Shown: piece by piece, positions 43,050 to 63,114 of the stretch
How the letters are laid out: each line of letters begins with the position of its first letter
Numbering within the stretch: the first letter of the stretch is position 1
Assembly (NCBI GenBank): GCA_031396725.1
Contig: JANNLH010000198.1
Location: 2,685-66,684, forward strand
From: Gemmatimonadaceae bacterium
Lineage (GTDB): Bacteria; Gemmatimonadota; Gemmatimonadetes; Gemmatimonadales; Gemmatimonadaceae
DNA length: 64,000 nucleotides
Direction: 5' to 3'
The notes under the pieces: generated by a model
The model's input: only the letters and a program-made list of their open reading frames with translations
Told to the model about the DNA's origin: nothing
Databases searched by the model: none
Made by a program: the position numbers and the translations under genes

Positions 43050-43123
43050 GCCCCCGTAGCTCAGGTGGATAGAGCGACGGTTTCCTAAACCGCAGGCCGG
43101 CGGTTCGAGTCCGCCCGGGGGCA
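43050..43123 (+). tRNA. tRNA-Arg(CCT), CCA not encoded
   Basis: Acceptor GCCCCCG/CGGGGGC, D-arm GCTC/GAGC with GGATA, anticodon loop TTCCTAA (CCT 43084-43086), T-loop TTCGAGT. Confidence 0.95.
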
Positions 43124-43256
43124 TCGGCGGCTGCACCGCGGCTACACTCCGGGGGTGGCTGCGGCTAGCTTTACCGACGAGTACCATCAGGCACCAACAA
43201 GCTGCGCCGCTCCGGTCCCCCCGGCGGCGCTCCACTCATCCAAACTGCGTTCCGAC

Positions 43257-43910
43257 ATGACCAAGACTGGAGAGGCCGCGCGTCCGAGCCTCACACTCGA
43301 ACCGGAGTCGCTCGGCGACACGCTCGTTCGATATCAGCGGCCGATCCTGATCGGCGCCATCGTGCTCGTCGCCGGCCTGGGTGGTGTCTGGATGTGGCGC
43401 CGCTCGGCCGAGGTCAAGGAGTCCCGCGGCGCGGAGGCCTACGCGAGCGCCGAGGCCGCGTTCGGGGCCGGGAATACCGTGCTGGCGCAGCCGGAGCTCG
43501 AGAAGGTCGCGACGCGGTACGTCGGGACGGCGGCCGGTACCCAGGCGGCCATGCTGCTTGCGCAGATCCTCTTCGACGAGGGCAAGCACGCTGACGGGAT
43601 CGCCGGTCTGGAGCGGGCGCTGGCGTCCGCGCCGGAGGCCCTGCGGGCGGGAACTCAGGCGCTGATCGCCGCCGGCCAAGAGGCCTCCGGCAAGCCAGCC
43701 GAGGCCGCATCGGCGTACGAGCGCGCGGCCACCGCCGCCTCTTTCATCGAGGATCGCGAGATGTACCGGATGGAGGCTGCCCGAAATCACCTTGCGGCAG
43801 GGAACGCAGCTGCCGCCAAGGCGATTTACGAACAGATCGTGACTCGCGAGGACTCACCGTACGTTGGCGAGGCGAAGGTAAGGCTTGGCGAGCTAACATC
43901 TAAGGTGTAA
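43257..43910 (+). CDS. YfgM-like single-TM tetratricopeptide-repeat protein
   Basis: One N-terminal TM helix followed by Ala-rich helical TPR-like repeats ('YVGTAAGTQAAMLLAQILFDEGK'). Confidence 0.75.
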   Translation: MTKTGEAARPSLTLEPESLGDTLVRYQRPILIGAIVLVAGLGGVWMWRRSAEVKESRGAEAYASAEAAFGAGNTVLAQPELEKVATRYVGTAAGTQAAMLLAQILFDEGKHADGIAGLERALASAPEALRAGTQALIAAGQEASGKPAEAASAYERAATAASFIEDREMYRMEAARNHLAAGNAAAAKAIYEQIVTREDSPYVGEAKVRLGELTSKV

Positions 43911-43933: not shown

Positions 43934-43971
43934 GAACGGGCCCGCGCAGACCGCGCGGGCCCGTTCTATTT
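43934..43971 (+). terminator. Intrinsic terminator, 14-bp perfect stem
   Basis: GAACGGGCCCGCGC-AGACC-GCGCGGGCCCGTTC then TATTT; lies between convergent genes. Confidence 0.8.
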
Positions 43972-44050
43972 CACGCCACTGAAGGGAAGTAGATGTCGCC
44001 TTGGTGACGCGGAAGCCGGACGCCTCCTGACAACTTCATACTTCCAGCTT

Positions 44051-44078
44051 ACTACTTATAATATGTATTATGTAAAGT
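44051..44078 (+). other. dif: XerCD dif recombination site (chromosome dimer resolution)
   Basis: ACTACTTATAA-TATGTA-TTATGTAAAGT: 11-6-11 architecture; 23/28 identical to B. subtilis dif as recalled (ACTTCCTAGAATATATATTATGTAAACT); intergenic AT island at the point where gene orientation converges. Confidence 0.85.
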
Positions 44079-44104
44079 AAGGGATGGGGATAACTCAAAG
44101 ATCT

Positions 44105-44923
44105 CTACAACTCGCGCAGCAGCCCCTCGAACACGATCCGACCCTCCCCTGATAGCGAAGGCAGGAGCCTGTCACCGGCCTGCCGGGTCGTGACCGTGAG
44201 GATCCGGCCCGACCGCGTCCGGATGGCCGTCTGGGAGGCGGTCTCCCCCCAGGCCTGAAGCAGCACGGCACACGCCACGGCTCCCGTACCGCAAGCCAGC
44301 GTCTCGGCCTCGACCCCACGTTCGTACGTCCGCATCGCCCAGCCGCCGCCAGACGCGGGCGCGACCCAGTTCACGTTGGCCCCCGCCTTGAGGCTCGGGT
44401 GATGCCGGAGTTCAGGCCCTCTCGCCTGAAGCGGGATCGCGTCCAGATCCGTCGTCCGGATGACCAGGTGCGGGACGCCCGAGTCCACGAATCCGAGCCG
44501 CTCCTCGCCTGCCTGCCGAGGGATCGCTGTCGCTGGAATGAGGCCGGTCGGCGGCTGAAGGTCGATCTCAGGAGCGCCGTCCCGGATCCGCGCGATGATC
44601 ACGCCCGCGTCCGTCTGGAACGTCAGCCCCTCCGCGTTCGCCATGCCCAGTTCGACCGCAAGGCGGGTGGCGCAGAGCGAGGCGTTGCCGCAGAGCTCGC
44701 CGAGGCTCCCGTCACGGTTGAAGTATCGCAGCCTAAAGTCTTGTGTAGCATCTACTTCAAGGATTGCCACCCCGTCCGCACCGACGCCCGTGTGCGGGGT
44801 GCAGACCTCGCGAACGAACTCGGGCGAGCTCCACTTCACACCTGCCGATCGGTCCGCTCGGGCGTCCACGAAGACGAAGTCGTTCCCCGACCCCGACATC
44901 TTCCAGAACTTCATGGCCTTCAT
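44105..44923 (-). CDS. dapF: Diaminopimelate epimerase
   Basis: 'KMSGSGNDF', 'LCGNASLC', 'DSGVPH', 'NVNW', 'RTYERGVEAETLACGTGA'; ATGA overlap with upstream gene. Confidence 0.93.
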   Translation of the reverse strand: MKAMKFWKMSGSGNDFVFVDARADRSAGVKWSSPEFVREVCTPHTGVGADGVAILEVDATQDFRLRYFNRDGSLGELCGNASLCATRLAVELGMANAEGLTFQTDAGVIIARIRDGAPEIDLQPPTGLIPATAIPRQAGEERLGFVDSGVPHLVIRTTDLDAIPLQARGPELRHHPSLKAGANVNWVAPASGGGWAMRTYERGVEAETLACGTGAVACAVLLQAWGETASQTAIRTRSGRILTVTTRQAGDRLLPSLSGEGRIVFEGLLREL

Positions 44924-45642
44924 ACCCGCCCCGTCAGCGCCCACCAGCGCAGCCGCCAGACCATCAGCACAGCCTCGCGCACGATGTGTCCGCTCATCTT
45001 GCTCTCGCCCTCGGTCCGGTCGGCGAACACGATCGGGATCTCGATCGGCTTGAATCCCTTCCGCATCGCACGGAACGTCATCTCGATCTGGAAGGCGTAG
45101 CCGTTGGAGCGGACATCCTCGAGGTCGATCGCGGCCAGCACGCGCCTGTGAAAGCACTTGAACCCGCCCGTGGCGTCCCAGAGCTTCATCCCGGTCACGA
45201 TGCGCGCGTAGATGTTGGCCCCATAGCTCAGCATCAGTCGCGTCATCGGCCAGTTCACGACCGTGACCTTGCCGTTCAGGTAGCGCGAGCCGAGCACGAA
45301 GTCCGCCGTCTCCGCGGCCTTGAGGAACTCCGGCAGGTGCACGGGATCGTGGCTGAAATCGGCGTCCATCTCGAAGATCAGCTCGTAGTCCCGCTGGAGT
45401 GCCCAGCGGAAGCCGTCCCGGTAGGCGGTGCCGAGCCCGAGCTTCCCCGGACGCCGCAGCAGGTGGACCCTCGCGTTGGTCTTGGTCAGCGACTCGATGA
45501 GGTCGCCGGTCCCGTCGGGCGAGTTGTCGTCCACGAACAGCATCTCGATCCGCGGATCCTGGGCCAGCACCCGCTCCACGAGCGTCGGCACATTCGGTCG
45601 CTCGTTGTACGTGGGCGTGATGACGAGCGCGCGTTCAGCCAT
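44920..45642 (-). CDS. Polyprenol-phosphate glycosyltransferase (Ppm1/DPM1-like GT2)
   Basis: 'ITPTYNE', 'VDDNSPDGTG', 'KLGLGTAY', 'EMDADFSHDP', 'GSRY', 'DATGGFK', 'SNGYAFQIE'. Confidence 0.9.
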   Translation of the reverse strand: MAERALVITPTYNERPNVPTLVERVLAQDPRIEMLFVDDNSPDGTGDLIESLTKTNARVHLLRRPGKLGLGTAYRDGFRWALQRDYELIFEMDADFSHDPVHLPEFLKAAETADFVLGSRYLNGKVTVVNWPMTRLMLSYGANIYARIVTGMKLWDATGGFKCFHRRVLAAIDLEDVRSNGYAFQIEMTFRAMRKGFKPIEIPIVFADRTEGESKMSGHIVREAVLMVWRLRWWALTGRV

Positions 45643-48025
45643 TCGAATGGGCTCTTCCGCGGGAGCGACCGAAGGCCAGCCCCGCCCCGACCGCGAGCAG
45701 CGAGAGCGCCAGCGCCACGAGCGTGATGCGCTTGCCGGAGTGGTACGGCGCTGAATCGAAGGTGAACTCGACCTTCCGGGCGCCGGCCGGCAGCGCAACC
45801 GCCATCAGCGAGAGATTCGCGCGCTCGGCCTTGGCCGGTTGACCGTCAACCGTCGCCGTCCAGCCCGGATAGTAGTTCTCCGAGACAACGAGCGCCGAAC
45901 CGGCGGGTGCGGGCGAATCCAGGTCGAGCGAGAACCGTCCCGGCGCGTACGCCGAGGCGGTCACCTTGATGGTCAGCGGCGCGGGCATCCCGCTGATCGT
46001 GACGGCCGGCGTGGACGAGGCGGTGTCGATCAGCGCCACTGCGCGATACGGGAAGGTCGGGACCCGCGTCGCCTCGGTGACGGACGCATCCGGGTACTTC
46101 GCGATGACCGGCGCGACCCAGGCGAACGGATGCTCGCCGGGAAGTTCGAACAGCGAGACCATCGTGCCCGCCGCGTTGCGCACCGGGCCCGCGACCCGCT
46201 TGATGTCCGGTCCCGGGAGTGAGTCGACGTTCGTATAGAGGTACTTCACGTTCGCGAGACCCCAGAACGCCGGGTTCCCCATCTGCGCGTAGTTGCGCTC
46301 CTTGTCGCCAAGCAGCTGATAGCGGCCGAGCTCGTTGCCGTGGTAGCCGGTCGCGATGCGGATGCGATGCGTCATGAGTCCGTCGCCGAAGAGCGCGGGA
46401 TCGTGGTAGGCCGCGCCCTCGGCCAGCGCCGTCGTGATGACGCGGACCGGCTGCGGCTCCCGCTTGATGTGCTCAATGACCGCATCGCTCGCGTAGATCT
46501 CGGCGGCCGGCGCCGAGAAGCGGAAGTACTGCCGCTCGACGCTCCAGAGGTCGGCGACCGTGAGCGCCGCGAGCGCCCAGCCGGCAAGCGCGGGCGTGAG
46601 GCGCTTCACGCCGAGCATCCAGACGACGAGCACCGTGCCGGCGAGGAAGATGAAGGAGCGCCACGCCCCCGCCATCAGGTTCGCGTCGTTCAAGCTCACG
46701 CGATCCGCCTGCTGGGGTAGCGCGATCGTCAGCGCCATCGCCTGGAGCGCGCCCACGCTCGCGAGGAGCGCGATCGCGCCGCCCGCGCCGAGCGCCGCAA
46801 GGCACCAGCGGCGGGTCACCTGCCCCGCGAGCGCGCGCTCGGTGCCCATCGCGGCGAGCACGGCCACGGCGAAGGTCGCGATGAAGAAGATCGTGCTCGG
46901 CGCTCGGAAGAACTGCGAACCCGGCACGATCGCGTAGACGAGCCGATAGAACGGCGTGTTGCCGCCGAGCGCCCAGAGCAGCGAGATGACCAGCACGCCC
47001 GTCCAGAACCAGAGCATGCGGCGGCGCGCCGGGATCGCGAAGGCGCCGCCGAAGGCGAGCGCCGCGAGGAAGAGCACCCCCGCCCCGAGATACTCGGAGT
47101 GGAAGTGGATCACGTTCCGCCCCCAGTAGTTCTCGAGGACCCCGGTGAACTGCGGCAGGTAGGTGTTGAAGAGTTCCTCGATCGGCATCGAGAAGCTGGT
47201 GGCGTACGTGTAGTCGCGGCCGCCGGCCCGCGGCGACCACTCCACGTACTCGCGCACCGGCAGGTACTGGATCGCGCCGATGGTCATGCCGAGCAGCACC
47301 GCCCCGAACGCGAGCCCGAGCCGCGTGAGCGCGGTCCGCGTCGCGAGCTTCGACTCCCCCGCCCCGCCGAACGCCAGCATCAGCGCCCACGCGCCGCTCG
47401 CGAGCAGCAGGTACTGGAGCAGCTGCGGGTGCGGCGAGAGCACGCCGAGTCCCACGATCAGCGCGAGCACACCCCACGCCCATCGCTTCGCATCGCGGAT
47501 GCCCCAGGTGAGCACGAGCAGCGTGACCGGGAGGAGCGCCGAGACGAACAGCTTGCCGTCGTGCCCGGGCGAGACGAGCGAGGCCACCTGGCCGCTCATC
47601 ATGTACGCGATCCCGCCGACGAGCGCCGCGTGGAATCCGATCCCGATCGCGCGCAGGAACGCGTAGCCGGCGACGCCGGCGAGCATCAGGTGGAGGATCA
47701 TCCCCCAGGTCATCGCCACGTCGGTCGGCAGGACCATCCGCAGCAGGAACGTCGGATAGAAGATGTCGCCGTGCATCGCGGCGACGTACGGCATCCCGCC
47801 GAAGAGATACGGGTTCCAAAGCGGGAACGCGCCGGAATCCCGCAGGGTCGCCGCGGCGTACTCGCGGAACGCATAGCCGGCGATGTACTGGTCGCTGACC
47901 GGATTGACGAGGAATCCGCCGGAGAGCGCCGGGTAGGCGAGCGTCAGCGCGGCGACGACGCAGGCGAGCGTTGCCCAGCCGAACGCGAAACGGGGGGCCG
48001 GCGGCAAGGAGGACGTGGCGTTCAT
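45635..48025 (-). CDS. YfhO-family polytopic membrane protein (GT-C-like)
   Basis: 796 aa, ~12 TM, 'SDQY...PLWNPYLFGGMP', C-terminal 'SENYYPGWTATVDG'. Confidence 0.8.
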   Translation of the reverse strand: MNATSSLPPAPRFAFGWATLACVVAALTLAYPALSGGFLVNPVSDQYIAGYAFREYAAATLRDSGAFPLWNPYLFGGMPYVAAMHGDIFYPTFLLRMVLPTDVAMTWGMILHLMLAGVAGYAFLRAIGIGFHAALVGGIAYMMSGQVASLVSPGHDGKLFVSALLPVTLLVLTWGIRDAKRWAWGVLALIVGLGVLSPHPQLLQYLLLASGAWALMLAFGGAGESKLATRTALTRLGLAFGAVLLGMTIGAIQYLPVREYVEWSPRAGGRDYTYATSFSMPIEELFNTYLPQFTGVLENYWGRNVIHFHSEYLGAGVLFLAALAFGGAFAIPARRRMLWFWTGVLVISLLWALGGNTPFYRLVYAIVPGSQFFRAPSTIFFIATFAVAVLAAMGTERALAGQVTRRWCLAALGAGGAIALLASVGALQAMALTIALPQQADRVSLNDANLMAGAWRSFIFLAGTVLVVWMLGVKRLTPALAGWALAALTVADLWSVERQYFRFSAPAAEIYASDAVIEHIKREPQPVRVITTALAEGAAYHDPALFGDGLMTHRIRIATGYHGNELGRYQLLGDKERNYAQMGNPAFWGLANVKYLYTNVDSLPGPDIKRVAGPVRNAAGTMVSLFELPGEHPFAWVAPVIAKYPDASVTEATRVPTFPYRAVALIDTASSTPAVTISGMPAPLTIKVTASAYAPGRFSLDLDSPAPAGSALVVSENYYPGWTATVDGQPAKAERANLSLMAVALPAGARKVEFTFDSAPYHSGKRITLVALALSLLAVGAGLAFGRSRGRAHSNG

Positions 48026-49023
48026 CTCGAGGGAGTCGGGGCGTTGCGCACGATGCGGGGCCGGGCGAGGAAGAGCAGCCCGGGGACGATCTCCAGCACC
48101 GTCAGCCAGAGCCGGGAGGCGATCACGAGCACGGCCGCGGCCGGGGCGCCGGTCAGCCCGGCGCTCACCAGCAGCGCCGCCATCGACACGTCACGGACCC
48201 CGATCCCGCCGGGGGCGAACAGGGCGATGAAACCGAGCAGGTAGGACAGCGTGAAAACTGCCACGTACGAGGCCGCTTCTCCAGAGGATGGGCCGAGCAG
48301 CGCGATCGCGAGTTCGCGGAAGGCGAGCCCGTAGAGCGTCCACGCAACGGCGCACCCGGCGGCCGCGATCCAGATCGCGCTCGGCGGCAGGTGCGGGGCC
48401 GTCACCGGTCGGCCGGTCACGCGGCCGATCAGTATGATGAGCCGTGGCAGGATCCAGGGGAGCGCGAGCACCGCGAGTCCCAGCAACACGAGCACCGCGG
48501 GAAGCGCTCCCGCGTCGGGCAGGAGCCCCGCGAAGAGTTCGCGTCCGGTCAGCGCGACGACCCCGAACCCCACGAGCACGTTGACGAGCGAGATGACGAG
48601 CGCCGAGCCGACGGCGGCGACCGGGCTCACCCCAGCCTCCTGCGCCATCACGCCCATCGCGCCGATCTGCCAGACCTTCCCCGGGACATAGCGTCCGAGG
48701 TTCGAGACGAACCAGATCCGCGCCGCGGTCCGGGGATCGAGTCGCTCCCCCCACGCCGCCACCGTCGCGCGCCAGGTCGCGATCAGGACCGCGTAGCTCA
48801 CGAGCACGATCCCGGCGGAACCCGCGACGCGCGGCCAGGAGGGATCGAGCTGCGCACGAAGCGCCGCGATCCCGGACCACTGATCCGCGAGCAGCAGCGC
48901 GGCGAAGACGAGCACCGCGACCACGAAGAGGAGTTGCAGCGCTGGGCGCAGCGTCCCGCGGCGCGGCGCGCGGCGCGGCGCGGGACGCGGCGCGGGACGC
49001 GGCTCACTCACGCTATCGCGCAT
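48022..49023 (-). CDS. Lysylphosphatidylglycerol-synthase TM / flippase-like membrane protein (UPF0104)
   Basis: 'SNLGRYVPGKVW', 'FAPGGIGVRD', 'SRLW'; start ATG 49023 or GTG 49011. Confidence 0.75.
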   Translation of the reverse strand: MRDSVSEPRPAPRPAPRRAPRRGTLRPALQLLFVVAVLVFAALLLADQWSGIAALRAQLDPSWPRVAGSAGIVLVSYAVLIATWRATVAAWGERLDPRTAARIWFVSNLGRYVPGKVWQIGAMGVMAQEAGVSPVAAVGSALVISLVNVLVGFGVVALTGRELFAGLLPDAGALPAVLVLLGLAVLALPWILPRLIILIGRVTGRPVTAPHLPPSAIWIAAAGCAVAWTLYGLAFRELAIALLGPSSGEAASYVAVFTLSYLLGFIALFAPGGIGVRDVSMAALLVSAGLTGAPAAAVLVIASRLWLTVLEIVPGLLFLARPRIVRNAPTPSR

Positions 49024-50182
49024 GACCGAGCACCGAGCGGTAGACCTCGCGGTAGCCTGCGGCGACCGCGCTCGGCGAGAAGCGGTCCACCATCCGCGCG
49101 CGCGCCGCGGCGCCATGACCGACGACGGCGGCGGGGTCCGCATCGGTCGCCTGGATCGCGTTCGCGAGCGCGCGGATCTCCCCGGGCGTCACCAGCACCC
49201 CACCCCACTCGGGACTGACGACGTCCGGCAGTCCGCCGGAGCGATAGGCGATGACGGGCGTCCGGCAGAGCTGCGCCTCCACCGCGACGAGACCGAGCCC
49301 CTCGTTGCGGGACGGCACCACGAGCGCCTGCGCACGGCGGTAGAGCACCGGGAGCTCGGTGCGTGGCACGGCGCCGAGCCAGTGCACGCGGCCGCCGATG
49401 CCGAGGCGGTCGGCCTGCGCCCTGAACACGGCCGCGTCGTCGCCCGCGCCCACGACGTCGAGCGACAGGTGCGGCGGGGTCCACGCGAGCGCCTCGAGCA
49501 GGTCGCCCAGGCCCTTCTGTGCATTGAGCCGACCCACGAAGAGGAAGCGGCCGGGGACGCGGTCCGCGTTCCCCGCCGTGAAGAGCGCGACGTCGGCCGG
49601 CATCGGCGCGACCGAGATCCGCGCGTCCGGCGCCATCGCCCGCGCCTCTCCGGCGAGCCATGACGACACCGCCGTCGCGGCGTTGGAGCGCGCCATCACC
49701 TTGCGGAAGATCGGATGCACGATGCGGACGCGGCGCGCGAGGCGCACGTCGGATCCGTGCATCGTGGTCACGAGCGGCACCTTCCCCGCCCCGCCCAGCG
49801 CCAGCAGGCCCGCCGGGAACCACCATTGGGCGTGCACCACGTCGGGCGTGAAGTCGTCGAGCTGGCGATTGACCGCGACGCTGCCCGCGGTGAGCAGACC
49901 GGCCAGCGCGCCCTTCCCCTTCAGCGACCCGAGCACCTGCTCGGCCATCGTCCCGGTGTAGGCGAGCGACTCCATCCCGCGCGGCGCGTAGCGGAATCGG
50001 CGCACGGGGATCCCCTCGATCTCGCCTGCTGGGGCGAGCCCTTCGGCGGAGGGTGCCAGGACGCGCACGTTGCAGCCGCCGGCGCGCAGCGCGACCGCGA
50101 GCCGGTGAAGGAACGAGCCGGCCGCATCGTCCGCGAATCGTGGATACGCGTGGGTGACGAACAGGACGCGCGGGCCGGTCAT
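49013..50182 (-). CDS. GT4 family glycosyltransferase
   Basis: 'FVGRLNAQKG', 'PSRNEGLGLVAVEAQ', 'SGGLPDVV'. Confidence 0.88.
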   Translation of the reverse strand: MTGPRVLFVTHAYPRFADDAAGSFLHRLAVALRAGGCNVRVLAPSAEGLAPAGEIEGIPVRRFRYAPRGMESLAYTGTMAEQVLGSLKGKGALAGLLTAGSVAVNRQLDDFTPDVVHAQWWFPAGLLALGGAGKVPLVTTMHGSDVRLARRVRIVHPIFRKVMARSNAATAVSSWLAGEARAMAPDARISVAPMPADVALFTAGNADRVPGRFLFVGRLNAQKGLGDLLEALAWTPPHLSLDVVGAGDDAAVFRAQADRLGIGGRVHWLGAVPRTELPVLYRRAQALVVPSRNEGLGLVAVEAQLCRTPVIAYRSGGLPDVVSPEWGGVLVTPGEIRALANAIQATDADPAAVVGHGAAARARMVDRFSPSAVAAGYREVYRSVLGHAR

Positions 50183-50189
50183 GGACCGG

Positions 50190-51146
50190 TCATCGGCTGC
50201 GGTCGCCTTGCTTCACCTCGTCGAGGAGCCGCCGCAGTTCGCGCTGCTCGGCGCGCGTCACGGCGATCTGCTCGCCGAGGAGGCCGGTCGCGAAGAAGAT
50301 CGAGCCGAGCAGGAGGCAGGTCTGGATCAGCGTCCAGACCCAGCGCAGGCCGATGCCGTTCGTGAGCAGCAGCACCAGCGCCACCACGCCCGCGAGCACG
50401 CCGAGCGCGAAGAGCCCGGCGCCGAGCATCCCGAACGCGAGGAGCGGCTTCTGGCCGAACCGGAGCTCGAACCAGACCGCGAGCATGTCGAGCACGCCGA
50501 CCGGGATGCGGCCGATGCCGAACTTCGATCGCCCGGCGTGGCGGGGATAGAGCGGCACCGGGATCTCGGTGACCGTGTACCCCTTGGCGTGCGCGAGCAC
50601 GATCATGTACCGGTGCCAGTCGGGCCGGGCCGGCTGGTCGTCCATGATCTCGCGGCGGTACGCCTTCACGTTGTTGAGGTCGCGGACCGGCACGTCGAAG
50701 AGCGCCCGCGAGAGGCCGTTGTAGATCTTCGAGACGAAGGCCTTCTCGTACGCCCCCTGCTTGAAGCCCGTCACCATGTCGGACTCGCCGGCCAGGATCG
50801 GGCGCACGAGCCGCGGGATGTCCTCGGGCTTGAACTGCAGGTCGGCGGGATAGAACACCAGCACCTCGCCGCGCGCGGCGAGGTAGCCGGTGCGGAGCGC
50901 GTCGGCGATGCCGCGCTGCGCGCGGTGCCGCACGGTACGCAGGAACGGATAGCGCGCGGTGAGCGCCTCGAGCACCTGCGGGGTCCCGTCGTCCGATCCG
51001 TCGTCCACGACGATCACCTCGTAGCCGACCGGCTCGTCGGCGAACGCCTCCGCGCAGAGTTCGAGGAACAGGGGCAGGTTCTCGGCCTCGTCCTTCGCCG
51101 GGACCAGGACGGAGACGACGGGTCGCTCGGTGATCGCGAGGCTCAC
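50190..51146 (-). CDS. GT2 glycosyltransferase with two C-terminal TM helices (GtrB/ArnC-like)
   Basis: GTGA overlap with rpoN stop; 'LVPAKDEAENL', 'VDDGSDDGT', 'YPADLQ', 'GRSKFG', C-terminal TM pair. Confidence 0.85.
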   Translation of the reverse strand: MSLAITERPVVSVLVPAKDEAENLPLFLELCAEAFADEPVGYEVIVVDDGSDDGTPQVLEALTARYPFLRTVRHRAQRGIADALRTGYLAARGEVLVFYPADLQFKPEDIPRLVRPILAGESDMVTGFKQGAYEKAFVSKIYNGLSRALFDVPVRDLNNVKAYRREIMDDQPARPDWHRYMIVLAHAKGYTVTEIPVPLYPRHAGRSKFGIGRIPVGVLDMLAVWFELRFGQKPLLAFGMLGAGLFALGVLAGVVALVLLLTNGIGLRWVWTLIQTCLLLGSIFFATGLLGEQIAVTRAEQRELRRLLDEVKQGDRSR

Positions 51147-52626
51147 AGTCGCTTGCGCATGCGCGCGGGGAGGACGCCGAGCTGGTCGCGGTACTTGGCG
51201 ACGGTGCGGCGCGCGATCCGCACGCCGTCCCGCTCGAGGATCTCCACGAGCGCCTGGTCGGTCAGCGGACTCTTCGGGTTCTCCTCGCCCACGAGCTTCT
51301 CGATCGTCGCGCGGATGCCGCGCGCCGAGACGTCCTCGCCGTCGCTGCTCTTGATGCCCGACGAGAAGAAGAACTTGAGCGGGAGCACTCCCCGCGGCGT
51401 CTGCGCGAACTTCTCGTTGGTCACGCGCGAGACGGTGGACTCGTGCATCCCGATCGCCTCGGCGACCTCGCGCAGCGTCAGCGGCCGCAGGCCTTGGACG
51501 CCCTTCTCGAAGAACTCGCGCTGCCGGTCGACGATGAAGTGCATCACCTTGAGCATCGTCTGGCGGCGCTGCTCGATCGCCTGGATCAGCCACTGCGCCG
51601 AGTTGAGCCGGCTGGTGATGAACTCCTTGTTCTCCCCCTCGAACTTCTTCTTGTCGCGCGCGATCTCCTGGTAGGCGCGGCTCAGCTTCAGCCGCGGGAG
51701 GTTCGCGTCGTTGATGAACACGAGGTACTCGCCCTCGATCTTCTCGACGATCAGGTCGGGCACGACGTAGTTGTCCCCGCCCTCCGAGTAGGCGCGCCCG
51801 GGCTTGGGGTTGAGTCGTGCGACCTCGTCGGCCGCCTGCTGCACCTGCGCCGGCGTCGCGCCGACCTTCCGCGCGATGTCCACCCACTTGTGCGCGATCA
51901 GCTCGTCGAAGTGTTCGCGCACGAGGCGCTCGGAGAGCGTGCCGAGGAGCCCCGAGTCCTTGAGCTGGAGGCAGAGGCACTCGTGCAGCGTCCGCGCGGC
52001 GATCCCGGGCGGGTCGAGCGCCTGGATGACCGCCAGCATCCGCTCGGCCTCGGCCATCGCGTAGAGGGGCAGCTCCCGCTCGTCCTCGGCCTCCTCGGCG
52101 GCCTTCGAGATCATGTCGTTGATGCCGGCGACGATCTCCTCGAGCGACGCGGAGAGATACCCCTCCTCATTGACGTTGCCGATGAACTCCTCGGCGAGGA
52201 GCTCGTCGCGCTCGTCCAGGTCGAGCAGCCGCATCTGGTCGCGCAGGTGGTCGTCCAGCCCGCGGGTGGCGACGGTCGTCGGCTCATAGTGCTCGCGGTC
52301 GTCCCGCTCCTCGCGCACGCCGCCGACGTCGAAGCCGTTGAGGAGGATCTCCTCCCACTGCGATTCGTCGTCGCTGTCCGCGGCCGCTGGCGTCTCGCCC
52401 GCCTCGGCTTCCTGCTCGGCGTCGGCCTCGGCCGCCGTCTCCTCTCCCTCCTCGGCCTCGTCGTCCTCCTCCTCGACGAGATCCAGGAACGGGTTGACGA
52501 GCAGTTCCTGCTTGAGGTGCTGCTGCAGGTCGAGGAGCGGCATGTACAGCATGTCCATCGCCTGGTACAGGCGCGGATTGACCTTGAGCTCCTGGCCCAT
52601 CCGCATCGACTGATGGAGGCCTGCCT

Positions 52627-52630
<4 letters not shown>
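51143..52630 (-). CDS. rpoN: RNA polymerase sigma-54 factor
   Basis: Gln/Leu region I, 'IEQRRQT', 'PLTLREVAEAIGMHESTVSRV', RpoN box 'ARRTVAKYR'. Confidence 0.97.
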
Positions 52631-53831
<1,201 letters not shown>

Positions 53832-53835
<4 letters not shown>

Positions 53836-55250
53836 GGGCGCCTCGCTGCCGGGGGGCGCGCCGGGGCCTTGCTGCTGTCGGGGCGGACATCCGTGCGCAC
53901 CGGTTCGAGGAAGACCCCCGACGTCTTGCCGAGGACCTCGACCTGTTGCATCTCGCCTGCCTCGAATGCGACCGTGATCACGCGTCCCTTGTTGTAGCTG
54001 ATGTTCGGCGGCCCTTTCCGGCCACCGTCGGTCGCCATCTGATAGAACGAACGCGCACTGCCGGTCGCAACCACGTCCCGCATGCGTGGCTGCGCGGTGC
54101 TGTCGGCGACCGCCACGCTGTCGAAGTGCGCGACGATCGTGTCCCCCGCGATCCAGTCCGGTTCGTCGGTGACGATCCGCGCCGTGTCCGACCGCGAGGT
54201 GGCCATCGCGTCGCCGACCGCATGGATCTCGCGCAGCCGCTGGCCGGGCATCCGGATGTCGAGCGAGTCGGCGTCGATGCGCTGGGCGGGCGCGTCGGCA
54301 CGCGAGCGCCCGCCCCAGGTGAAGACCCGCTCCATGCGCTGCGCCGCGAGCCGCATGTCGATCGTGTCGGCGGTGAGCGTCAGCGAGTCGCTGACCACGC
54401 GCCCCGCGCCCGACGCCAGCACGCGCTCGAGCTGCCGGTCCTTCGACCAGAGGTCGATCAGCGTGCCGTCGAGCGTGAACGACCGTTGGCCGCGCCCCAC
54501 GATCCGCGGCGTGCGCATCAGCCGCGAGTGCTCGGTGCCCTGGTCGAGCGTGGCGGAGTCGCCCGTGGCCCGCATGTCCCAGCGCTCGATGATCACGTTG
54601 CCGGACGCCCAGACCAGCGAGTCGTTCTCCGAGAGCACCGTATTGGCGGTGAGGTCCACCGAGTCGGACACGGCGGCACCCGCCGAATCGCGGCGCACCG
54701 TCGGCGCCGACCCGTCGGCGGTCGGGCTCATCCGCACGAAGGGCCGGCCGGTCGCGACCCAGCGCGACGCGGTGCGGAGGCCGGGCTTGTCGCGGAAGTA
54801 CTCCATCCGCGGGCCCTCGAACCTCGTGCCCGAGGCGGTGGTGCCCCGCACGTTGCCCTCGGCGAGCAGCCGCTCGTCGGCGACGAAGTAGCGCATCGAG
54901 TCCGACCGGATGCGCACGCGGGCCTCGGTGTACCGCACGTTCCGGTAGAGGATGAGGAGCCCCTGGTCCTCGTGATGTTCGGCGCTGTCGGCGTAGAGCC
55001 GGTTCCCCTGCCCCAGGCAGGTCGCGGTGACGCCGCCGCCGATGTACGTGACGCGGCCGCCGGTGCCGGTGGTGTAGAAGCGCGCGAAGGTCGAGTCGTT
55101 GGCGCGCTCGATGCCCCGGACCTCCATGTCGCACGGCTTGCGGTCCCCGCCGCCCGCCGGCCGCTGGGCGGCGAGGCGGCCGGGCACGAGCGAGAGCGCG
55201 GCCAGGAGTGCGGCCGCGGCGCAGGCGAGGGGGGCGAGAGGACGGGGCAC
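53832..55250 (-). CDS. lptA: Long LptA/OstA-like beta-jellyroll periplasmic protein
   Basis: Signal peptide; repeated beta-rich OstA-like segments ('LYADSA', 'LLAEGNV', 'ATGDSA', 'LTADTI'); position between lptC and lptB. Confidence 0.7.
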
Positions 55251-55254
55251 GCGG

Positions 55255-55818
55255 TCAGTTGCCCGGCAGGTCGACGGTGCCGGCGCGCCCGCTCTGGAGC
55301 TTGAACACGTCCACGAAGGTCAGATTGGGATCCGCCCGGAATCCGACGCCGCGGAGCTCCTTGCGGCCCGGCTCGGTGAGCACGAACGCCGAGTCCGACG
55401 TGACCTGGTTCAGGTTCTGGTTGAACCGGATCTGCGAGGTCTTCAGCACCCGGCCGTCCACCGACGTGATCACGACGTCGCCGAACGCTTCCAGCTGCTG
55501 ATTGCGCGTGTCGAAGTTCGCGATGCGGCCGACCATCGTGGCCTCCTTCGCGCCGGTGGCCCCGTAGAAGTCCGCGTTGACCTTGCGCAGCGAGGCCCGG
55601 GTGTTCTGGTCGAGGAAGAGCGCGGTGTCCGCGAAGACCTCGGCGCGCATCACGCCCTTGTCGGTGATGGTCGTGCGGAATCCGAACGCGACCTGCTCCG
55701 CCGAATCGAGGAGCGTGCCGGTGGCGGTCGCGCCGCCGGGCGCGGAGCCGACCTGGGAGCAGGCCCCGACGCCCGCGGCAAGGGCGAGCAGGAGGATCCG
55801 CGCGCTGCGCCGGTTCAT
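55255..55818 (-). CDS. lptC: LPS export periplasmic protein LptC-like
   Basis: Position kdsD-lptC-lptA; 'LEAFGDVVITS.DG..LKT..I.FN......TSD..F'; lipobox-like 'GVGAC'. Confidence 0.75.
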   Translation of the reverse strand: MNRRSARILLLALAAGVGACSQVGSAPGGATATGTLLDSAEQVAFGFRTTITDKGVMRAEVFADTALFLDQNTRASLRKVNADFYGATGAKEATMVGRIANFDTRNQQLEAFGDVVITSVDGRVLKTSQIRFNQNLNQVTSDSAFVLTEPGRKELRGVGFRADPNLTFVDVFKLQSGRAGTVDLPGN

Positions 55819-56801
55819 ACCGCCCCCGCCCGCATCAGGTCGTGCAAGTGCACGACGCCGGCCACGAGCCCGTCGGCCTCGAGCACCGGGAGGGCGACGA
55901 TGCCGTGCGTCTCCATCGTGTGGACGGCGGCGCTGGCCAGTTCCTCGGCGAGCGCGGTCTTGGGGGCGCGCGTCATCACGCGCTCGACGGCGATGGGGAA
56001 GATGTCCGACTCCTGTTCCATCAGCCGTGAGAGGTCCCCGGTCGTGATCACGCCCTGCAACCGTCCCTGCGCCGCGACGATGCAGAGGCCGCGCTTCGCG
56101 GCCAGCTGCACGATCGCCTGCCGCATCGTGGCGCCCGGCGGCAGCACGGGCAGGTCGTCGGCGACCATCACGTCGCGCACGCGGAGCAGGAGCCGTCGCC
56201 CGAGCGCACCGCCGGGATGGAACTTCGCGAAATCCTCGCGCCGGAACCCCTTCTCCTCGAGCAGCGCGACCGCGAGCGCGTCCCCGATGGCGAGGGCGAG
56301 GGTGGTGCTGGTCGTCGGCGCGAGGTCGTGCGGACACGCCTCCTCGCGCACCCATCCGTCGAGTGCGACCGTGCTGTGCTTCGCGAGGGTGGAGGTCCCA
56401 TCCCCCGTGATGGCGATGCACGGTACCCCCAGCCTGGTGAGCTGTTCCAGCAGCGGCAACAGCTCCTGCGTCTCACCGCTCTTCGAGAGGAGCACGGCCA
56501 CATCGTGCGGCGTCACGATGCCGAGGTCGCCATGCACGCTCTCGGTCGGATGCAGGAACATCGCCGGCGTGCCGGTGCTCGTCATCGTCGCCGCGATCTT
56601 CCGCGCGATCAGCCCCGACTTGCCGATCCCGGCCACGATCACCCGTCCGGTGGACTGCTTGATCAGCGCCACCGCGCGCGCGAATTCCTCGCCGAGCCGC
56701 ACGCCCGCTTCGGCCAGCGCTTCGTGCTCGAGGCGGAGCACGCGACGTCCGCGCTCGACGATCCGCTGGGTCACGGCGGCATCCATCCCGTCGGGGCTCA
56801 C
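55815..56801 (-). CDS. kdsD: Arabinose-5-phosphate isomerase (KpsF/GutQ, SIS + CBS domains)
   Basis: 'GIGKSGLIARKIAAT', 'HGDLG', 'SKSGET', 'LAPTTST', 'FHPGGALG'; GTGA overlap. Confidence 0.92.
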   Translation of the reverse strand: MSPDGMDAAVTQRIVERGRRVLRLEHEALAEAGVRLGEEFARAVALIKQSTGRVIVAGIGKSGLIARKIAATMTSTGTPAMFLHPTESVHGDLGIVTPHDVAVLLSKSGETQELLPLLEQLTRLGVPCIAITGDGTSTLAKHSTVALDGWVREEACPHDLAPTTSTTLALAIGDALAVALLEEKGFRREDFAKFHPGGALGRRLLLRVRDVMVADDLPVLPPGATMRQAIVQLAAKRGLCIVAAQGRLQGVITTGDLSRLMEQESDIFPIAVERVMTRAPKTALAEELASAAVHTMETHGIVALPVLEADGLVAGVVHLHDLMRAGAV

Positions 56802-57370
56802 GCCTCCTCCGCACGGCTGGTCACGTACGCCTCGACCTGCGCGTCCCACGCGCCGCGCGCGCGGAGCAGCAGTTCGCAGAACTCGCGCACCGCCCCCGCC
56901 CCGCCCGAGCGCGTGAGGTGCACCGTCGCGGCGCGGCGCGCCTCGGGCGACCCGTTGGCCACGCAGACCGGCAGGCCCACGAGGCGCATCACGCCCAGGT
57001 CCGGCAGATCGTCACCGACGAACGCCACCTCCGACCAGTCGAGCCCTCGCGCCTGGAGCAGCCGTCGCAGGGCCGGCACCTTCCGCGCGTGCCGGTCCTG
57101 CACGAGGTCGTCCACGCGCAGCTCGGCGGCGCGCAGCGCGACGCTCTCCGACTCCCGGCCGGTGATGATCGCCGTCAGCAGTCCCGCCTGCTTCAGCATC
57201 AAGATCCCGAGCCCGTCCTGGATGTCGTAGCGCTTGAGCTCGATGCGCGCGCCCGCACTGTCGCCGAGCACGATGCCGCCGTCGGTCAGTACGCCGTCCA
57301 CGTCGAAGCAGACGAGCTTGATGCGCGCGGCCGTGGCGGCGTCGAGCTGCGGCGGGGCCCCGAGGATCAT
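56798..57370 (-). CDS. kdsC: KDO-8-phosphate phosphatase (HAD)
   Basis: 'FDVDGVLTDG', 'DGLGI', 'ITGR', 'FVGDDLPD', 'GGAGAVRE'. Confidence 0.93.
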   Translation of the reverse strand: MILGAPPQLDAATAARIKLVCFDVDGVLTDGGIVLGDSAGARIELKRYDIQDGLGILMLKQAGLLTAIITGRESESVALRAAELRVDDLVQDRHARKVPALRRLLQARGLDWSEVAFVGDDLPDLGVMRLVGLPVCVANGSPEARRAATVHLTRSGGAGAVREFCELLLRARGAWDAQVEAYVTSRAEEA

Positions 57371-58197
57371 CGGCGGGCCAGCTCCCAGATCGCGATGCAG
57401 CGATCGATGATCGCGTCGAGCTGGTCGAGCGGGATCATGTTGGGGCCGTCGCTCGGCGCGCGGGCGGGATCCGGATGCGTCTCCATGAAGAGCCCGTCCG
57501 CGCCCGCGGCGCAGGCCGCGTACGAGAGTGCCGGGATGTGCTCGCGCGCGCCGCCCGAGGTGCCGCCCTCCCCTCTCCCGGGCTGCTGCACCGAGTGCGT
57601 CGCATCGAAGATCACCGGTGCGTCGCACGCGGCGCGCATCCGCGAGAAGCTGCGCATGTCCACGACCAGGTCCCCGTACCCGAAGAAGGTGCCGCGCTCG
57701 GTCACGGCGACATCGCAGCCGCCTTCCGAGCGGATGAGGGGCGCCGGATACGCGCCGCGGACCTTGCGCACCGCGCCAGCCAGTCCCTCGGGGTGCATCC
57801 ACTGCCCCTTCTTGACGTTCACCGGCTTGCCGGTCGCGCCGGCCGCCTCGAGCAGGTCCGTCTGGCGGCAGAGGAACGCGGGGATCTGGAGCACGTCGGC
57901 GACGAGGGCGGCCTCGGCGCACTGCGACGGGAGGTGCACGTCGGTCAGCACCGGCAGTCCGGTACGTTCCCGCACGCGCATCAGGGCGGCAAGCCCCTCC
58001 TCGAGCCCCGGTCCACGGTGCGCGCCATGGTTCGACCGATTGGCCTTGTCGAAGCTCGCCTTGAAGATGATCCCGCCGGGGACGCGATCGGCGAGGCGCG
58101 CCAGGTGATCCGCCACCCGGAACATCAGGTCGTCATCCTCGACCACGCAGGGGCCTGCGATCAGGAAGAGGCGGTCCCTCGGGAACGTCGCCGGCAT
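57367..58197 (-). CDS. kdsA: KDO-8-phosphate synthase
   Basis: 'IAGPCVVE', 'KASFDKANRS', 'QIPAFLCRQTDL', 'KKGQW', 'ERGTFFGY', 'DATHSVQ'. Confidence 0.96.
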   Translation of the reverse strand: MPATFPRDRLFLIAGPCVVEDDDLMFRVADHLARLADRVPGGIIFKASFDKANRSNHGAHRGPGLEEGLAALMRVRERTGLPVLTDVHLPSQCAEAALVADVLQIPAFLCRQTDLLEAAGATGKPVNVKKGQWMHPEGLAGAVRKVRGAYPAPLIRSEGGCDVAVTERGTFFGYGDLVVDMRSFSRMRAACDAPVIFDATHSVQQPGRGEGGTSGGAREHIPALSYAACAAGADGLFMETHPDPARAPSDGPNMIPLDQLDAIIDRCIAIWELARR

Positions 58198-58198
58198 C

Positions 58199-60639
<2,441 letters not shown>

Positions 60640-60666
60640 TTGCTCACCGTTGGCGGGGGCGCGCGC

Positions 60667-60684
60667 ATGCAAAATCCACGCCAA
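60667..60684 (-). promoter_or_regulatory. Candidate sigma54 (-24/-12) promoter for the kdsB...rpoN operon
   Basis: Minus strand TTGGCGTGGATTTTGCAT: GG-N10-GC spacing with TGGC and TTGCA; about 18-nt leader to the kdsB ATG. Confidence 0.55.
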
Positions 60685-60772
60685 GGGAATCTACGGGGTG
60701 CGCGAGGACCTACAAGAGGGGGTCACAAATCTTTCGGCCGTCGAAGCCGCGCACGGGGCGGATCGGGGCTCT

Positions 60773-60900
60773 ACCGCCAAGACACGAAGGGTTGAAGCAC
60801 TGCAGAAGGGGGCCTGGGGGAACCGCATGCAGCCACGCAGTTTGTGTCGTCACTCCCCCGCCCCCCTCGGCCCCTCTTCTTCCCCTCGTGCCTTCGTGGT
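60773..60900. repeat. ~128-bp long imperfect inverted repeat (REP/MITE-like hairpin)
   Basis: Outer arms 60773-60790 and 60883-60900 pair at 15/18 positions; inner arms GAAGGGGGCC/GGCCCCTCTTC and G6/C6. Confidence 0.6.
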
Positions 60901-61529: not shown

Positions 61530-62453
61530 TCAGCCGCGCGGATGGAACTGCTTGTGCACCTGGCGCAGGTGCTCGCGGTCGATGTGCGTGTAGATCTGCG
61601 TCGTCGAGATGTCGGCGTGCCCGAGCATCTCCTGCACGGCGCGCAGGTCCGCGCCTCCCTCGAGCAGGTGCGTTGCGAAGGAGTGCCGCAGCGTGTGCGG
61701 CGTCACCAGCTTCCCGATCCCCGCGCGCTCCACGTACTTCCGCAGGATCGTCCAGGCCCCCATTCGCGAGAGGGGTTTGCCGCGCGCGTTCAGGAAGAGC
61801 CGCCCCTCCCCCGCACCCTTCTCCAGCTTCGGCCTGAGCTCGCGGAGGTAGATCCCGACCGCGCCCGCTGCTTGCCGCCCGATCGGCACCAGCCGCTCCT
61901 TCCCGCCCTTGCCGAGCACGCGCACCACCAGTTCGTCGAGCAGGACATCCTTCGTGAACACCCCGATCCACTCGCTCACGCGCAGTCCGGCCCCATAGGC
62001 CAGTTCGAGCATCGCGCGATCGCGGAACGCCAGCGGATTGTCTTCGTCGAGGGTCACTGCGCCGATCAGCCGCCCGACCTCGTCGGCGGTCAGCACCTCC
62101 GGCAGCACGCGCCACTTCTTCGGCGTCTCGAGCCGCTCGCTGGGATCCTTGGTCAGCACCCCATCGGACATCAGGAAGCGGTACCAGGTGCGGATCGCCG
62201 AGACGCCACGGCGGATGCTCGAGGGCGCGAGCCCGAGGTCCTTCAGGTGATAGACGAACTCGCGGAGATGCGCGGCGGAGAGCCCGGCGGGCTCCCCGAC
62301 CCCCTTCGACGTCGCCCACGCGGCGAGCCGGGCGAGGTCGCGTCCGTAGGCCTCGTTGGTGCGCGCACTCGTGCCCTGCTCGAGCGTGAGGTATTCATCG
62401 AATCGCTCGAGCAGGAACCGGCGCGCGACGCCGTCAGGGGTGTTGTCCGGCAT
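61530..62453 (-). CDS. xerD: Tyrosine recombinase XerD-like
   Basis: 'RDRAMLELAYGAGLRVSE', 'GKGGKERLVP', 'PHTLRHSFATHLLEGGADLRAVQEMLGHADISTTQIYTH'; XerC vs XerD by similarity only. Confidence 0.85.
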   Translation of the reverse strand: MPDNTPDGVARRFLLERFDEYLTLEQGTSARTNEAYGRDLARLAAWATSKGVGEPAGLSAAHLREFVYHLKDLGLAPSSIRRGVSAIRTWYRFLMSDGVLTKDPSERLETPKKWRVLPEVLTADEVGRLIGAVTLDEDNPLAFRDRAMLELAYGAGLRVSEWIGVFTKDVLLDELVVRVLGKGGKERLVPIGRQAAGAVGIYLRELRPKLEKGAGEGRLFLNARGKPLSRMGAWTILRKYVERAGIGKLVTPHTLRHSFATHLLEGGADLRAVQEMLGHADISTTQIYTHIDREHLRQVHKQFHPRG

Positions 62454-63114
62454 CGTCGTCGGTGGGCGCCGCCGCGGCCGCACGCTTCGCCTTGCGTTGC
62501 TTCCACCAGCGCCAGGCGACGAACGCGAGCACCGCCGCCACCGCGACCGCGCCGAGGCCGACGTCGCGCGCGACCCGCTCGAGGGTCGCCTTCACCGACG
62601 CCCAGTCGCTGCCGACGTGGAACGCGATCCAAGTGATGCCGCCATACCAGATCGTGGACGCGACCGCGAAGATCGCCATCGTCTCCCAGAGCGGGATGCG
62701 CAGCGCGCCCGCCGCGGCCGGCACCACCGCACGCACGCCGGGCAGGAACCGGCTCACGAAGAGCGCGATCCACCCGTAGCGCTTGTACGCGTCCTCCACC
62801 TTCTGCTCGGCCTCCTCGATCCGGTGCTCGACCTTCGTGAGCCCCATCCGGCCGAGGCGATGGGCGAGCCACTCCGCGCCGTAGCGGCGTCCCACCCACC
62901 ACATCACGAGGGCGCCCAGCAGGCTGCCCGTGGTCACCGCGGCGACCGTGGCCGGGAGTGCGCCACCGGCGCGTGCCGCGAGGAATGCCAATCCGGCCGC
63001 CGCGATGTCGCCCGGCATCAGCGGGAGCACGCCCTCGACGAACGCGGCGCCGAAGATGAGCGCATAAAGGGCGCCCACCGGGACGCCCTGGAGCCAGCCG
63101 AGGATTCCGTCCAC
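62434..63114 (-). CDS. DedA family membrane protein
   Basis: 'FVEG..PLMPGD', 'MWWVGRRYG', 'YGWIALFVSRFLPGVR'. Confidence 0.85.
   Translation of the reverse strand: MDGILGWLQGVPVGALYALIFGAAFVEGVLPLMPGDIAAAGLAFLAARAGGALPATVAAVTTGSLLGALVMWWVGRRYGAEWLAHRLGRMGLTKVEHRIEEAEQKVEDAYKRYGWIALFVSRFLPGVRAVVPAAAGALRIPLWETMAIFAVASTIWYGGITWIAFHVGSDWASVKATLERVARDVGLGAVAVAAVLAFVAWRWWKQRKAKRAAAAAPTDDDAGQHP

Follow-up and report, generated by a model that had tools for sequence, protein, structure and literature searches.

The probable chromosomal dif site of an uncultured Gemmatimonadaceae bacterium and the conserved DnaA-box-like words beside it

Recombination at dif has been described for E. coli, in which XerC and XerD act together with FtsK, and for B. 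subtilis, in which dif is served by CodV/RipX and SpoIIIE/SftA. Integrative elements and plasmids make use of Xer sites of the same form as well. Among the Gemmatimonadota, a dif site was predicted for G. aurantiaca T-27 (Kono et al. 2011, PMC3025954, additional file 2); the predicted site coincides with the shift point of the GC skew to within 0.011% of the genome. In the T-27 genome (G056), AATGCGTATAATACATGTTATGTAAACT starts at 1930284, which is the same sequence and the same coordinate as in that list; the list gives the T-27 28-mer only, and the flanking boxes that are described below are not mentioned there (Kono et al. 2011, PMC3025954). In this work, a candidate dif site was analysed in a 64,000-nucleotide stretch of DNA (hereafter the window, C123:2685-66684) from another member of the same family. 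The genome to which the window belongs (G000) is a 3.92-Mb draft of 214 contigs with 70% G+C, and contig C123 is 108 kb long.

The site is the 28-mer ACTACTTATAATATGTATTATGTAAAGT, which was found on the + strand at window positions 44051-44078, exactly where the initial annotation had placed it, and which can be divided into ACTACTTATAA-TATGTA-TTATGTAAAGT. It has an 11-6-11 layout, i.e., two partly palindromic 11-bp arms around a 6-bp centre, and the arms are self-complementary at 7/11 positions. The AT island and the inner palindrome that had drawn attention to the site are both real: the 28-mer contains 18% G+C in a genome of 70% G+C, and ATAATA-TG-TATTAT (44058-44071) is an exact palindrome. 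Only 114 of the approx. 3.9 million 40-bp windows in the G000 genome are equally AT-rich, and none of 100 dinucleotide-preserving shuffles matched the dif 28-mer. By alignment with dif of E. coli and of B. subtilis, the left arm ACTACTTATAA (44051..44061, + strand) is the putative XerC-binding arm and the right arm TTATGTAAAGT (44068..44078, + strand) the putative XerD-binding arm, while strand exchange would be expected in the centre TATGTA (44062..44067, + strand). The right arm agrees with that of B. subtilis at 10/11 positions and with that of E. coli at 9/11; the latter figure and the 23/28 agreement of the whole site with B. subtilis dif, both given in the initial annotation, match the published strings (Kono et al. 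2011, PMC3025954).

Comparison with relatives indicates which parts of the site are held constant. In the left arm, the outer 7 positions are variable and ATAA is invariant, and variable outer positions are the usual pattern in XerC arms. TTATGTA of the right arm is invariant in every family member found. The centre TATGTA is invariant within the genus but differs between genera of the family (TATGGA, TACATG, GATGTA, and others), which fits a region that needs only to match its sister copy. Arms that are kept across genera around a centre that changes, GATATG being a further variant, represent the behaviour expected of a Xer site. In 25 syntenic loci, the dif site has an information content of 1.6 bits per position vs. 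0.16-0.37 in its flanks, and the proteins encoded on either side of dif in relatives are only 40-70% identical.

The site is present once in G000, as the initial annotation anticipated for a chromosomal dif. It had also been claimed that neither cargo nor a second site is visible, and this remained true at the level of the genome: the next-best 28-mer has 9 mismatches, neither dif half-site recurs in G000, and the flanking genes are the same in relatives. The 17-bp dif core occurs once per genome in 22 of the 24 same-genus genomes, and the two genomes that lack it are 71% and 76% complete. At the family level, the pattern ATAA-N6-TTATGTAAA is single-copy in 22/25 sampled genomes (G000 included), and the reversed control pattern gave no matches in the 25 family genomes. 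In two sister families, the arm form TTATGTTAA is present in 34/36 genomes; it is single in 33 of these 36, and one more genome has two copies on separate contigs.

The dif site sits in a 194-bp spacer between two convergent genes, both of which point at it. On the left lies a gene for a TPR_21-domain protein (43155..43910, + strand; Pfam PF09976, E = 1.4e-10), which is also the left neighbour of dif in most relatives. On the right lies dapF, encoding diaminopimelate epimerase (44105..45157, - strand; TIGR00652, 189 bits with a cut-off of 115), which closes a long run of minus-strand genes. Almost all Gemmatimonadales loci that were examined have dapF to the right of dif, with protein identity down to approx. 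40%. In three families, dif adjoins the 3' end of dapF. The E. coli xerC gene is cotranscribed with dapF, and the dapF-dif adjacency may reflect either chance or an ancient association of dapF with the Xer system. Other features of the region were also noted. A G+C-rich hairpin with a 12-bp stem, ACGGGCCCGCGC / GCGCGGGCCCGT, can be read from the sequence at 43936..43964 (+ strand) and is probably the terminator of the TPR gene; relatives have a hairpin of different sequence at the same place, and a simple terminator scan did not flag the one in the window, where a T run is absent. Closer to dif on the XerC side, a block of the form TGTCGC-N5/6-TGwCGC ... AAnnCGGAC (43992..44022, + strand) is conserved within the genus (MAFFT, 23 same-genus spacers). 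A tRNA gene (43050-43123, 64 bits) directly precedes the TPR gene at a distance of 930 bp from dif, and a search against Rfam returned nothing at the dif site itself.

The position of the site with respect to replication was assessed from GC skew and gene strands. On contig C123, the maximum of the cumulative GC skew is found at 46699, which is 36 bp before the start of dif (46735); the chance of a peak this close is approx. 7e-4 if its position is free along the contig. GC skew is weak in this clade (about 0.01-0.02), and a contig-level peak alone is unconvincing; hence, the same-genus genome G017 was tested, so that the skew analysis covered the 108-kb contig and a 1.2-Mb sample of G017. The latter genome is nearly closed, with a main contig of 3,136,119 bp, and was sampled in sixty 20-kb pieces, 400 kb being contiguous around dif. 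Over these 400 kb, the cumulative skew reaches its maximum at 1479010, and dif starts 26 bp away at 1479036. The stretch from position 1 to dif has a mean skew of +0.019, as against -0.016 for the stretch between dif and dnaA (Mann-Whitney p = 1e-4); of the 20-kb bins, nearly all of the ten before dif have positive values and the three that follow it strongly negative ones, and the sign reverses again at dnaA. The distance between dif and dnaA is 1,500,862 bp, which divides the main contig into 47.9% and 52.1%, a geometry opposite dnaA that rests on the same-genus relative since G000 is a 214-contig draft. Gene strands on C123 also change at dif: crude GC3-based gene calls give 17+/3- on its left side and 4+/35- on its right, where 33 consecutive minus-strand genes are found. 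The initial annotation had proposed that the skew should invert at this site and that the window probably contains the terminus. Both expectations are supported, as the skew maximum (36 bp from dif on C123 and 26 bp in G017) coincides with a flip of gene strands and a flip of polar octamers.

These octamers were derived from the skew of G017 and then tested on G000. In G017, the leading:lagging strand counts of GGGCGGGG are 62:13 and 26:5 for genes on the leading and the lagging strand, respectively, and those of GGGNAGGG are 56:18 and 51:8. Because both words keep to the leading strand in lagging-strand genes, they follow the direction of replication and not the coding strand; a leading-strand preference irrespective of gene strand is the behaviour of FtsK-orienting sequences, and the strand ratios far exceed the expectation from a 2% G excess. 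The polar-word signal is nevertheless partly confounded with gene orientation, many of the skewed words being coding-strand words; CGGCAAGA, GAGAAGG, and GCTGCTG were rejected as KOPS on this ground, since their preference reverses in lagging-strand genes of G017. In G000, GGGCGGGG is distributed 8:0 to the left of dif and 2:15 to the right (Fisher p = 4e-5) and GGGNAGGG 6:2 and 1:12. The copies of GGGCGGGG nearest to dif are the last + copy at C123:40702 and the first - copy at 48364. Within the window, the KOPS-like words occupy 14972-38018 (+ strand) and 45680-60856 (- strand) and converge on dif. The inversion of KOPS polarity foreseen for a terminus was thus seen for both words in G000, and GGGCGGGG and GGGNAGGG are candidate FtsK-orienting sequences for Gemmatimonadota.

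The proteins needed to act on such a site appear to be encoded in the genome. The xerD gene lies in the window (61530..62483, - strand; TIGR02225, 345.8 bits with a cut-off of 329.6), 17.5 kb from dif, and the RHRH-Y motifs can be read in its translation; in G017, xerD is 21 kb from dif. A XerC candidate on contig C108 scores 325 bits, which is 10 bits under the cut-off of 335.15, with XerC as its best match, and it passes NF001399. An FtsK gamma domain is encoded on contig C115 (PF09397, 92 bits).

Conservation does not stop at the 28-mer. A motif search in 25 syntenic loci anchored on the invariant dif core gave 0.16 bits per position in the left flank and revealed a second motif on the right. 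In 85/85 Gemmatimonadales loci, words of the TGTGGAnAA type start +6/+7 and/or +16/+17 past the XerD arm, always on the same strand. Each of the 57 distinct family loci has a + strand word with no more than 2 mismatches to TGTGGATAA at +6, +7, +16 or +17, and a few carry a further word at +26; the left-flank control (60 nt, either strand) yielded such words in 3/57. The two sister families behave similarly (28/28 loci), with the +16 word universal and the +6 word present in 17. In G000, such words have a background rate of 2.8e-4 per base and strand. The conserved element reaches approx. 25 bp past the 28-bp dif on the XerD side in three families, and within Gemmatimonadales the words are conserved as strongly as the dif arms. 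The boxes are not a general companion of this dif core, as no enrichment was found in Longimicrobiales or in other phyla that share the 17-bp core.

In the window, the word TGGGGATAA (44085..44093, + strand) starts 7 nt after the XerD arm and agrees with TGTGGATAA at 8/9 positions. This variant occurs only once in the G000 genome, and its mismatch hits the CACA part of the DnaA box consensus (TTATCCACA / TGTGGATAA). The words of relatives match the consensus at 7-9/9 positions, and many fit TGTGNAWAA exactly; variants found beside dif include TGGGGATAA, GGTGGATAA, TGTGGAGAA, TGTGGAAAA, and one perfect TGTGGATAA. The typical layout, dif-N5/6-GGTGGATAA-c-TGTGGAAAA, consists of direct repeats with a 10-bp period. 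The genus to which the window belongs has instead an inverted pair, TGGGGATAAC-N5-GATTTCCAC. Most genus relatives carry GATTTCCAC where the window has the weak GATCTCTAC (44100..44108, - strand), a degenerate and only possible inverted partner that overlaps the dapF stop codon. The inverted boxes could form a hairpin in this genus, which is impossible in the direct-repeat lineages. No papers describing DnaA boxes beside dif were found in a literature search of incomplete coverage, which is weak evidence of absence.

The phased words beside dif most likely bind a protein, and DnaA is the leading candidate for it. The same words occur in the dnaA promoter/origin region of this organism. Perfect TGTGGATAA words are rare in G000 (only 8 in 3.9 Mb), and one of them lies in the rpmH-dnaA spacer next to a one-mismatch box. 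In the 1.2-Mb sample of G017, the single perfect box is upstream of dnaA. Moreover, the DnaA protein of G000 has a normal DNA-binding domain IV. On the other hand, the departure of the word in the window from the CACA part of the consensus counts against its being a DnaA box. The tandem form of the words was also searched for in 12 family genomes: the dif-adjacent pair is the best match in G066, G043, G047, G050, and G046 and the second best in T-27, while in the same-genus G000 and G017 the best match is a tandem upstream of recA.

Several observations on these words concern other parts of the genome. Two perfect boxes are located in an AT-rich spacer (G000 C181:3310-3500) approx. 1 kb past the end of parB, with one ORF between; this spacer, 18 kb from dnaA, is a candidate oriC. 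Two further perfect boxes of G000 lie in an AT-rich spacer upstream of recA-recX (C115:1676-1787), where a third, imperfect box makes the same 10-bp tandem; in G017, tandem DnaA-type boxes are found at C1:1143891-1143909. In T-27, a similar box pair is found upstream of a gene whose product starts with MPELPEVE and looks like mutM/fpg.

Two other candidates for the box-binding protein were considered and rejected. The recA tandem raised the possibility that the words are LexA operators; this was dismissed because, in three genomes, the promoter of lexA itself has none of the boxes and contains different repeats, of the TTCGG type, whereas perfect boxes do occur in the rpmH-dnaA spacer and next to parB. 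These repeats, cttgtgcttcgggcaatgttcggataccgttacttcgg, are shared by the lexA promoters of G000 (C91:~101280-101340), G017, and T-27; they do not resemble classical SOS boxes and may be the operator that LexA uses in this lineage. A DnaA paralogue of approx. 630-670 aa, with two tandem Bac_DnaA ATPase domains (340 bits), is also encoded (G000 C155:25037-27055; G017 C1:1683587-1685128). It has neither the N-terminal domain nor domain IV of DnaA, and the absence of the latter speaks against it as the binder of the boxes.

Taken together, it is reasonable to conclude that this uncultured member of Gemmatimonadaceae has its chromosomal dif at window positions 44051-44078 and that the site lies at the replication terminus; the probability of this reading can be put at roughly 0.93. 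It is drawn directly from the sequence, copy number, and position of the site, from the polarity signals around it, from the presence of the proteins, and from conservation. The initial annotation had preferred a chromosomal dif over a pdif module or an integrated element, and this preference is supported by a site that is single-copy, lacks cargo, and lies at the skew maximum of its contig, in a genome that encodes XerC, XerD, and FtsK. Binding and cleavage by the Xer proteins and dependence on FtsK would be expected by analogy. If the system works as its E. coli and B. subtilis homologues do, an odd number of crossovers would leave a chromosome dimer after replication, and septal FtsK would read the G-rich polar octamers GGGCGGGG and GGGNAGGG, which are aimed at dif from both sides, and would pump DNA until the two dif copies meet. 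XerC would then occupy the left arm and XerD the right arm; the FtsK gamma domain would activate XerD, and a crossover across the TATGTA centre would restore monomers.

It could be argued that the site binds Xer proteins and nevertheless has another main role, such as XerD-dependent unloading of SMC, as at XDS, or active termination by a box-binding protein. The switch of skew within approx. 30 bp of dif in two genomes and the conserved array abutting dif, which resembles a set of protein-binding sites, would both suit such a role. However, B. subtilis XDS sites are not known to have a XerC arm, whereas the site in the window has both arms and a conserved centre, and either role would add to dimer resolution and not replace it. 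Also, it is common for the skew to switch at dif in bacteria that have no known trap there, and for T-27 the difference is given as 0.011% (Kono et al. 2011, PMC3025954). A main role of this kind is thus very improbable. Slightly less credit still can be given to a Xer site that belongs to a mobile element or plasmid, i.e., an IMEX attachment junction or a pdif/xrs module. Such elements do use similar Xer sites, and a tRNA gene is present 930 bp to the left; nonetheless, the G000 genome contains no second full or half Xer site that could bracket an insertion, and the TPR-dif-dapF order is syntenic in three families, which implies that nothing has been inserted at dif. Furthermore, the contig carries housekeeping genes, and the G017 counterpart lies in a 3.1-Mb contig. 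An AT-rich promoter or palindromic operator that merely resembles dif merits just as little, for although a sigma-70-like TTCATA-16-TATAAT can be read at 44035-44062, with TATAAT inside the left arm, and the inner palindrome would suit a dimeric repressor, the neighbouring genes converge and both end at dif, which leaves such an element with no target downstream to drive, the -35 region is unconserved (0.16 bits per position in the left flank), many relatives have CAATAA, CGATAA or GAATAA instead of TATAAT in the left arm, and such an element would not account for a site that is single in each genome and located at the skew maximum.

With a chromosomal dif as the preferred reading, the question arises as to what the adjacent words might do there. 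A protein on the boxes would stand where FtsK docks in E. coli. In the latter species, the nucleotides next to the XerD arm are needed for activation of recombination by FtsK (Bonne et al. 2009, PMC2673442); given this requirement and a box 6 nt from the arm, it is proposed that the boxes might affect the contact between FtsK and XerD. More specifically, the locus may be a composite dif, in which DnaA or a dedicated factor of the same specificity, bound to the boxes, gates or assists the access of FtsK to XerD. This model was built from the arrangement of sequences, and it should be regarded as tentative and, on balance, rather doubtful. If it were true, the end of the chromosome cycle would be coupled to the state of the replication initiator; if the boxes do bind DnaA, the initiator would be physically connected with the resolution of chromosome dimers.

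The core of the site is ordinary, given that the T-27 dif was already predicted in 2011. The flanking boxes, which were found in no paper, are not. In practical terms, dif provides a reliable terminus marker for the genome of an uncultured Gemmatimonadaceae member and helps to orient its contigs, and the analysis yields candidate KOPS words for the phylum. Of greater use is the composite dif-box architecture, particularly as the cultured G. aurantiaca T-27 has the same arrangement at 1930284-1930337, which makes it testable.

In comparison with known systems, the locus shares with E. coli dif/XerC-XerD/FtsK a 28-bp 11-6-11 site that has a right arm identical at 9/11 positions and is present once, where the GC skew switches, as well as a pair of paralogous recombinases, an FtsK gamma domain, and converging G-rich polar octamers, which include the E. 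coli KOPS consensus GGGNAGGG. It differs from E. coli dif in the left arm and centre (19/28 overall) and in the phased word array 6 nt from the XerD arm; to our knowledge, and in the literature searched, E. coli dif has no reported counterpart of this array. In addition, xerD lies within approx. 20 kb of dif in the window lineage, unlike in E. coli. The closest validated sequence is B. subtilis dif (23/28 overall, right arm 10/11, centre 5/6), although that species belongs to a different phylum and the window lineage has an outer membrane. Furthermore, the polar words in the window resemble KOPS and not the SRS word GAGAAGGG, and GAGAAGG follows the coding strand in G017. The predicted dif of T-27 comes from the same family and agrees at 21/28 positions overall (arms 8/11 and 10/11); it has the same TPR-dif-dapF context and the same box pair, GGTGGATAAcTGTGGGAAA, and differs in its centre, which is TACATG vs. 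TATGTA in the window.

Two further groups of sites resemble the flanking element more than the core. In ColE1 cer and pSC101 psi, a Xer core is joined to conserved flanking DNA, as it is here, and these flanks bind other proteins that control the reaction. The accessory DNA of cer and psi is approx. 180 bp long, lies on the XerC side, and binds PepA together with ArgR or ArcA, whereas the words conserved order-wide in the window lineage are 9 nt long and lie within 25 bp on the XerD side, the XerC-side block having been examined within the genus; moreover, the site is on a chromosome, and the genome encodes an FtsK gamma domain. E. coli datA and DARS1/2 and the B. subtilis DBCs likewise contain DnaA-box-like words outside oriC. 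We know of none reported next to dif or at the terminus, and, unlike them, the words in the window lineage hold a fixed register to the XerD arm.
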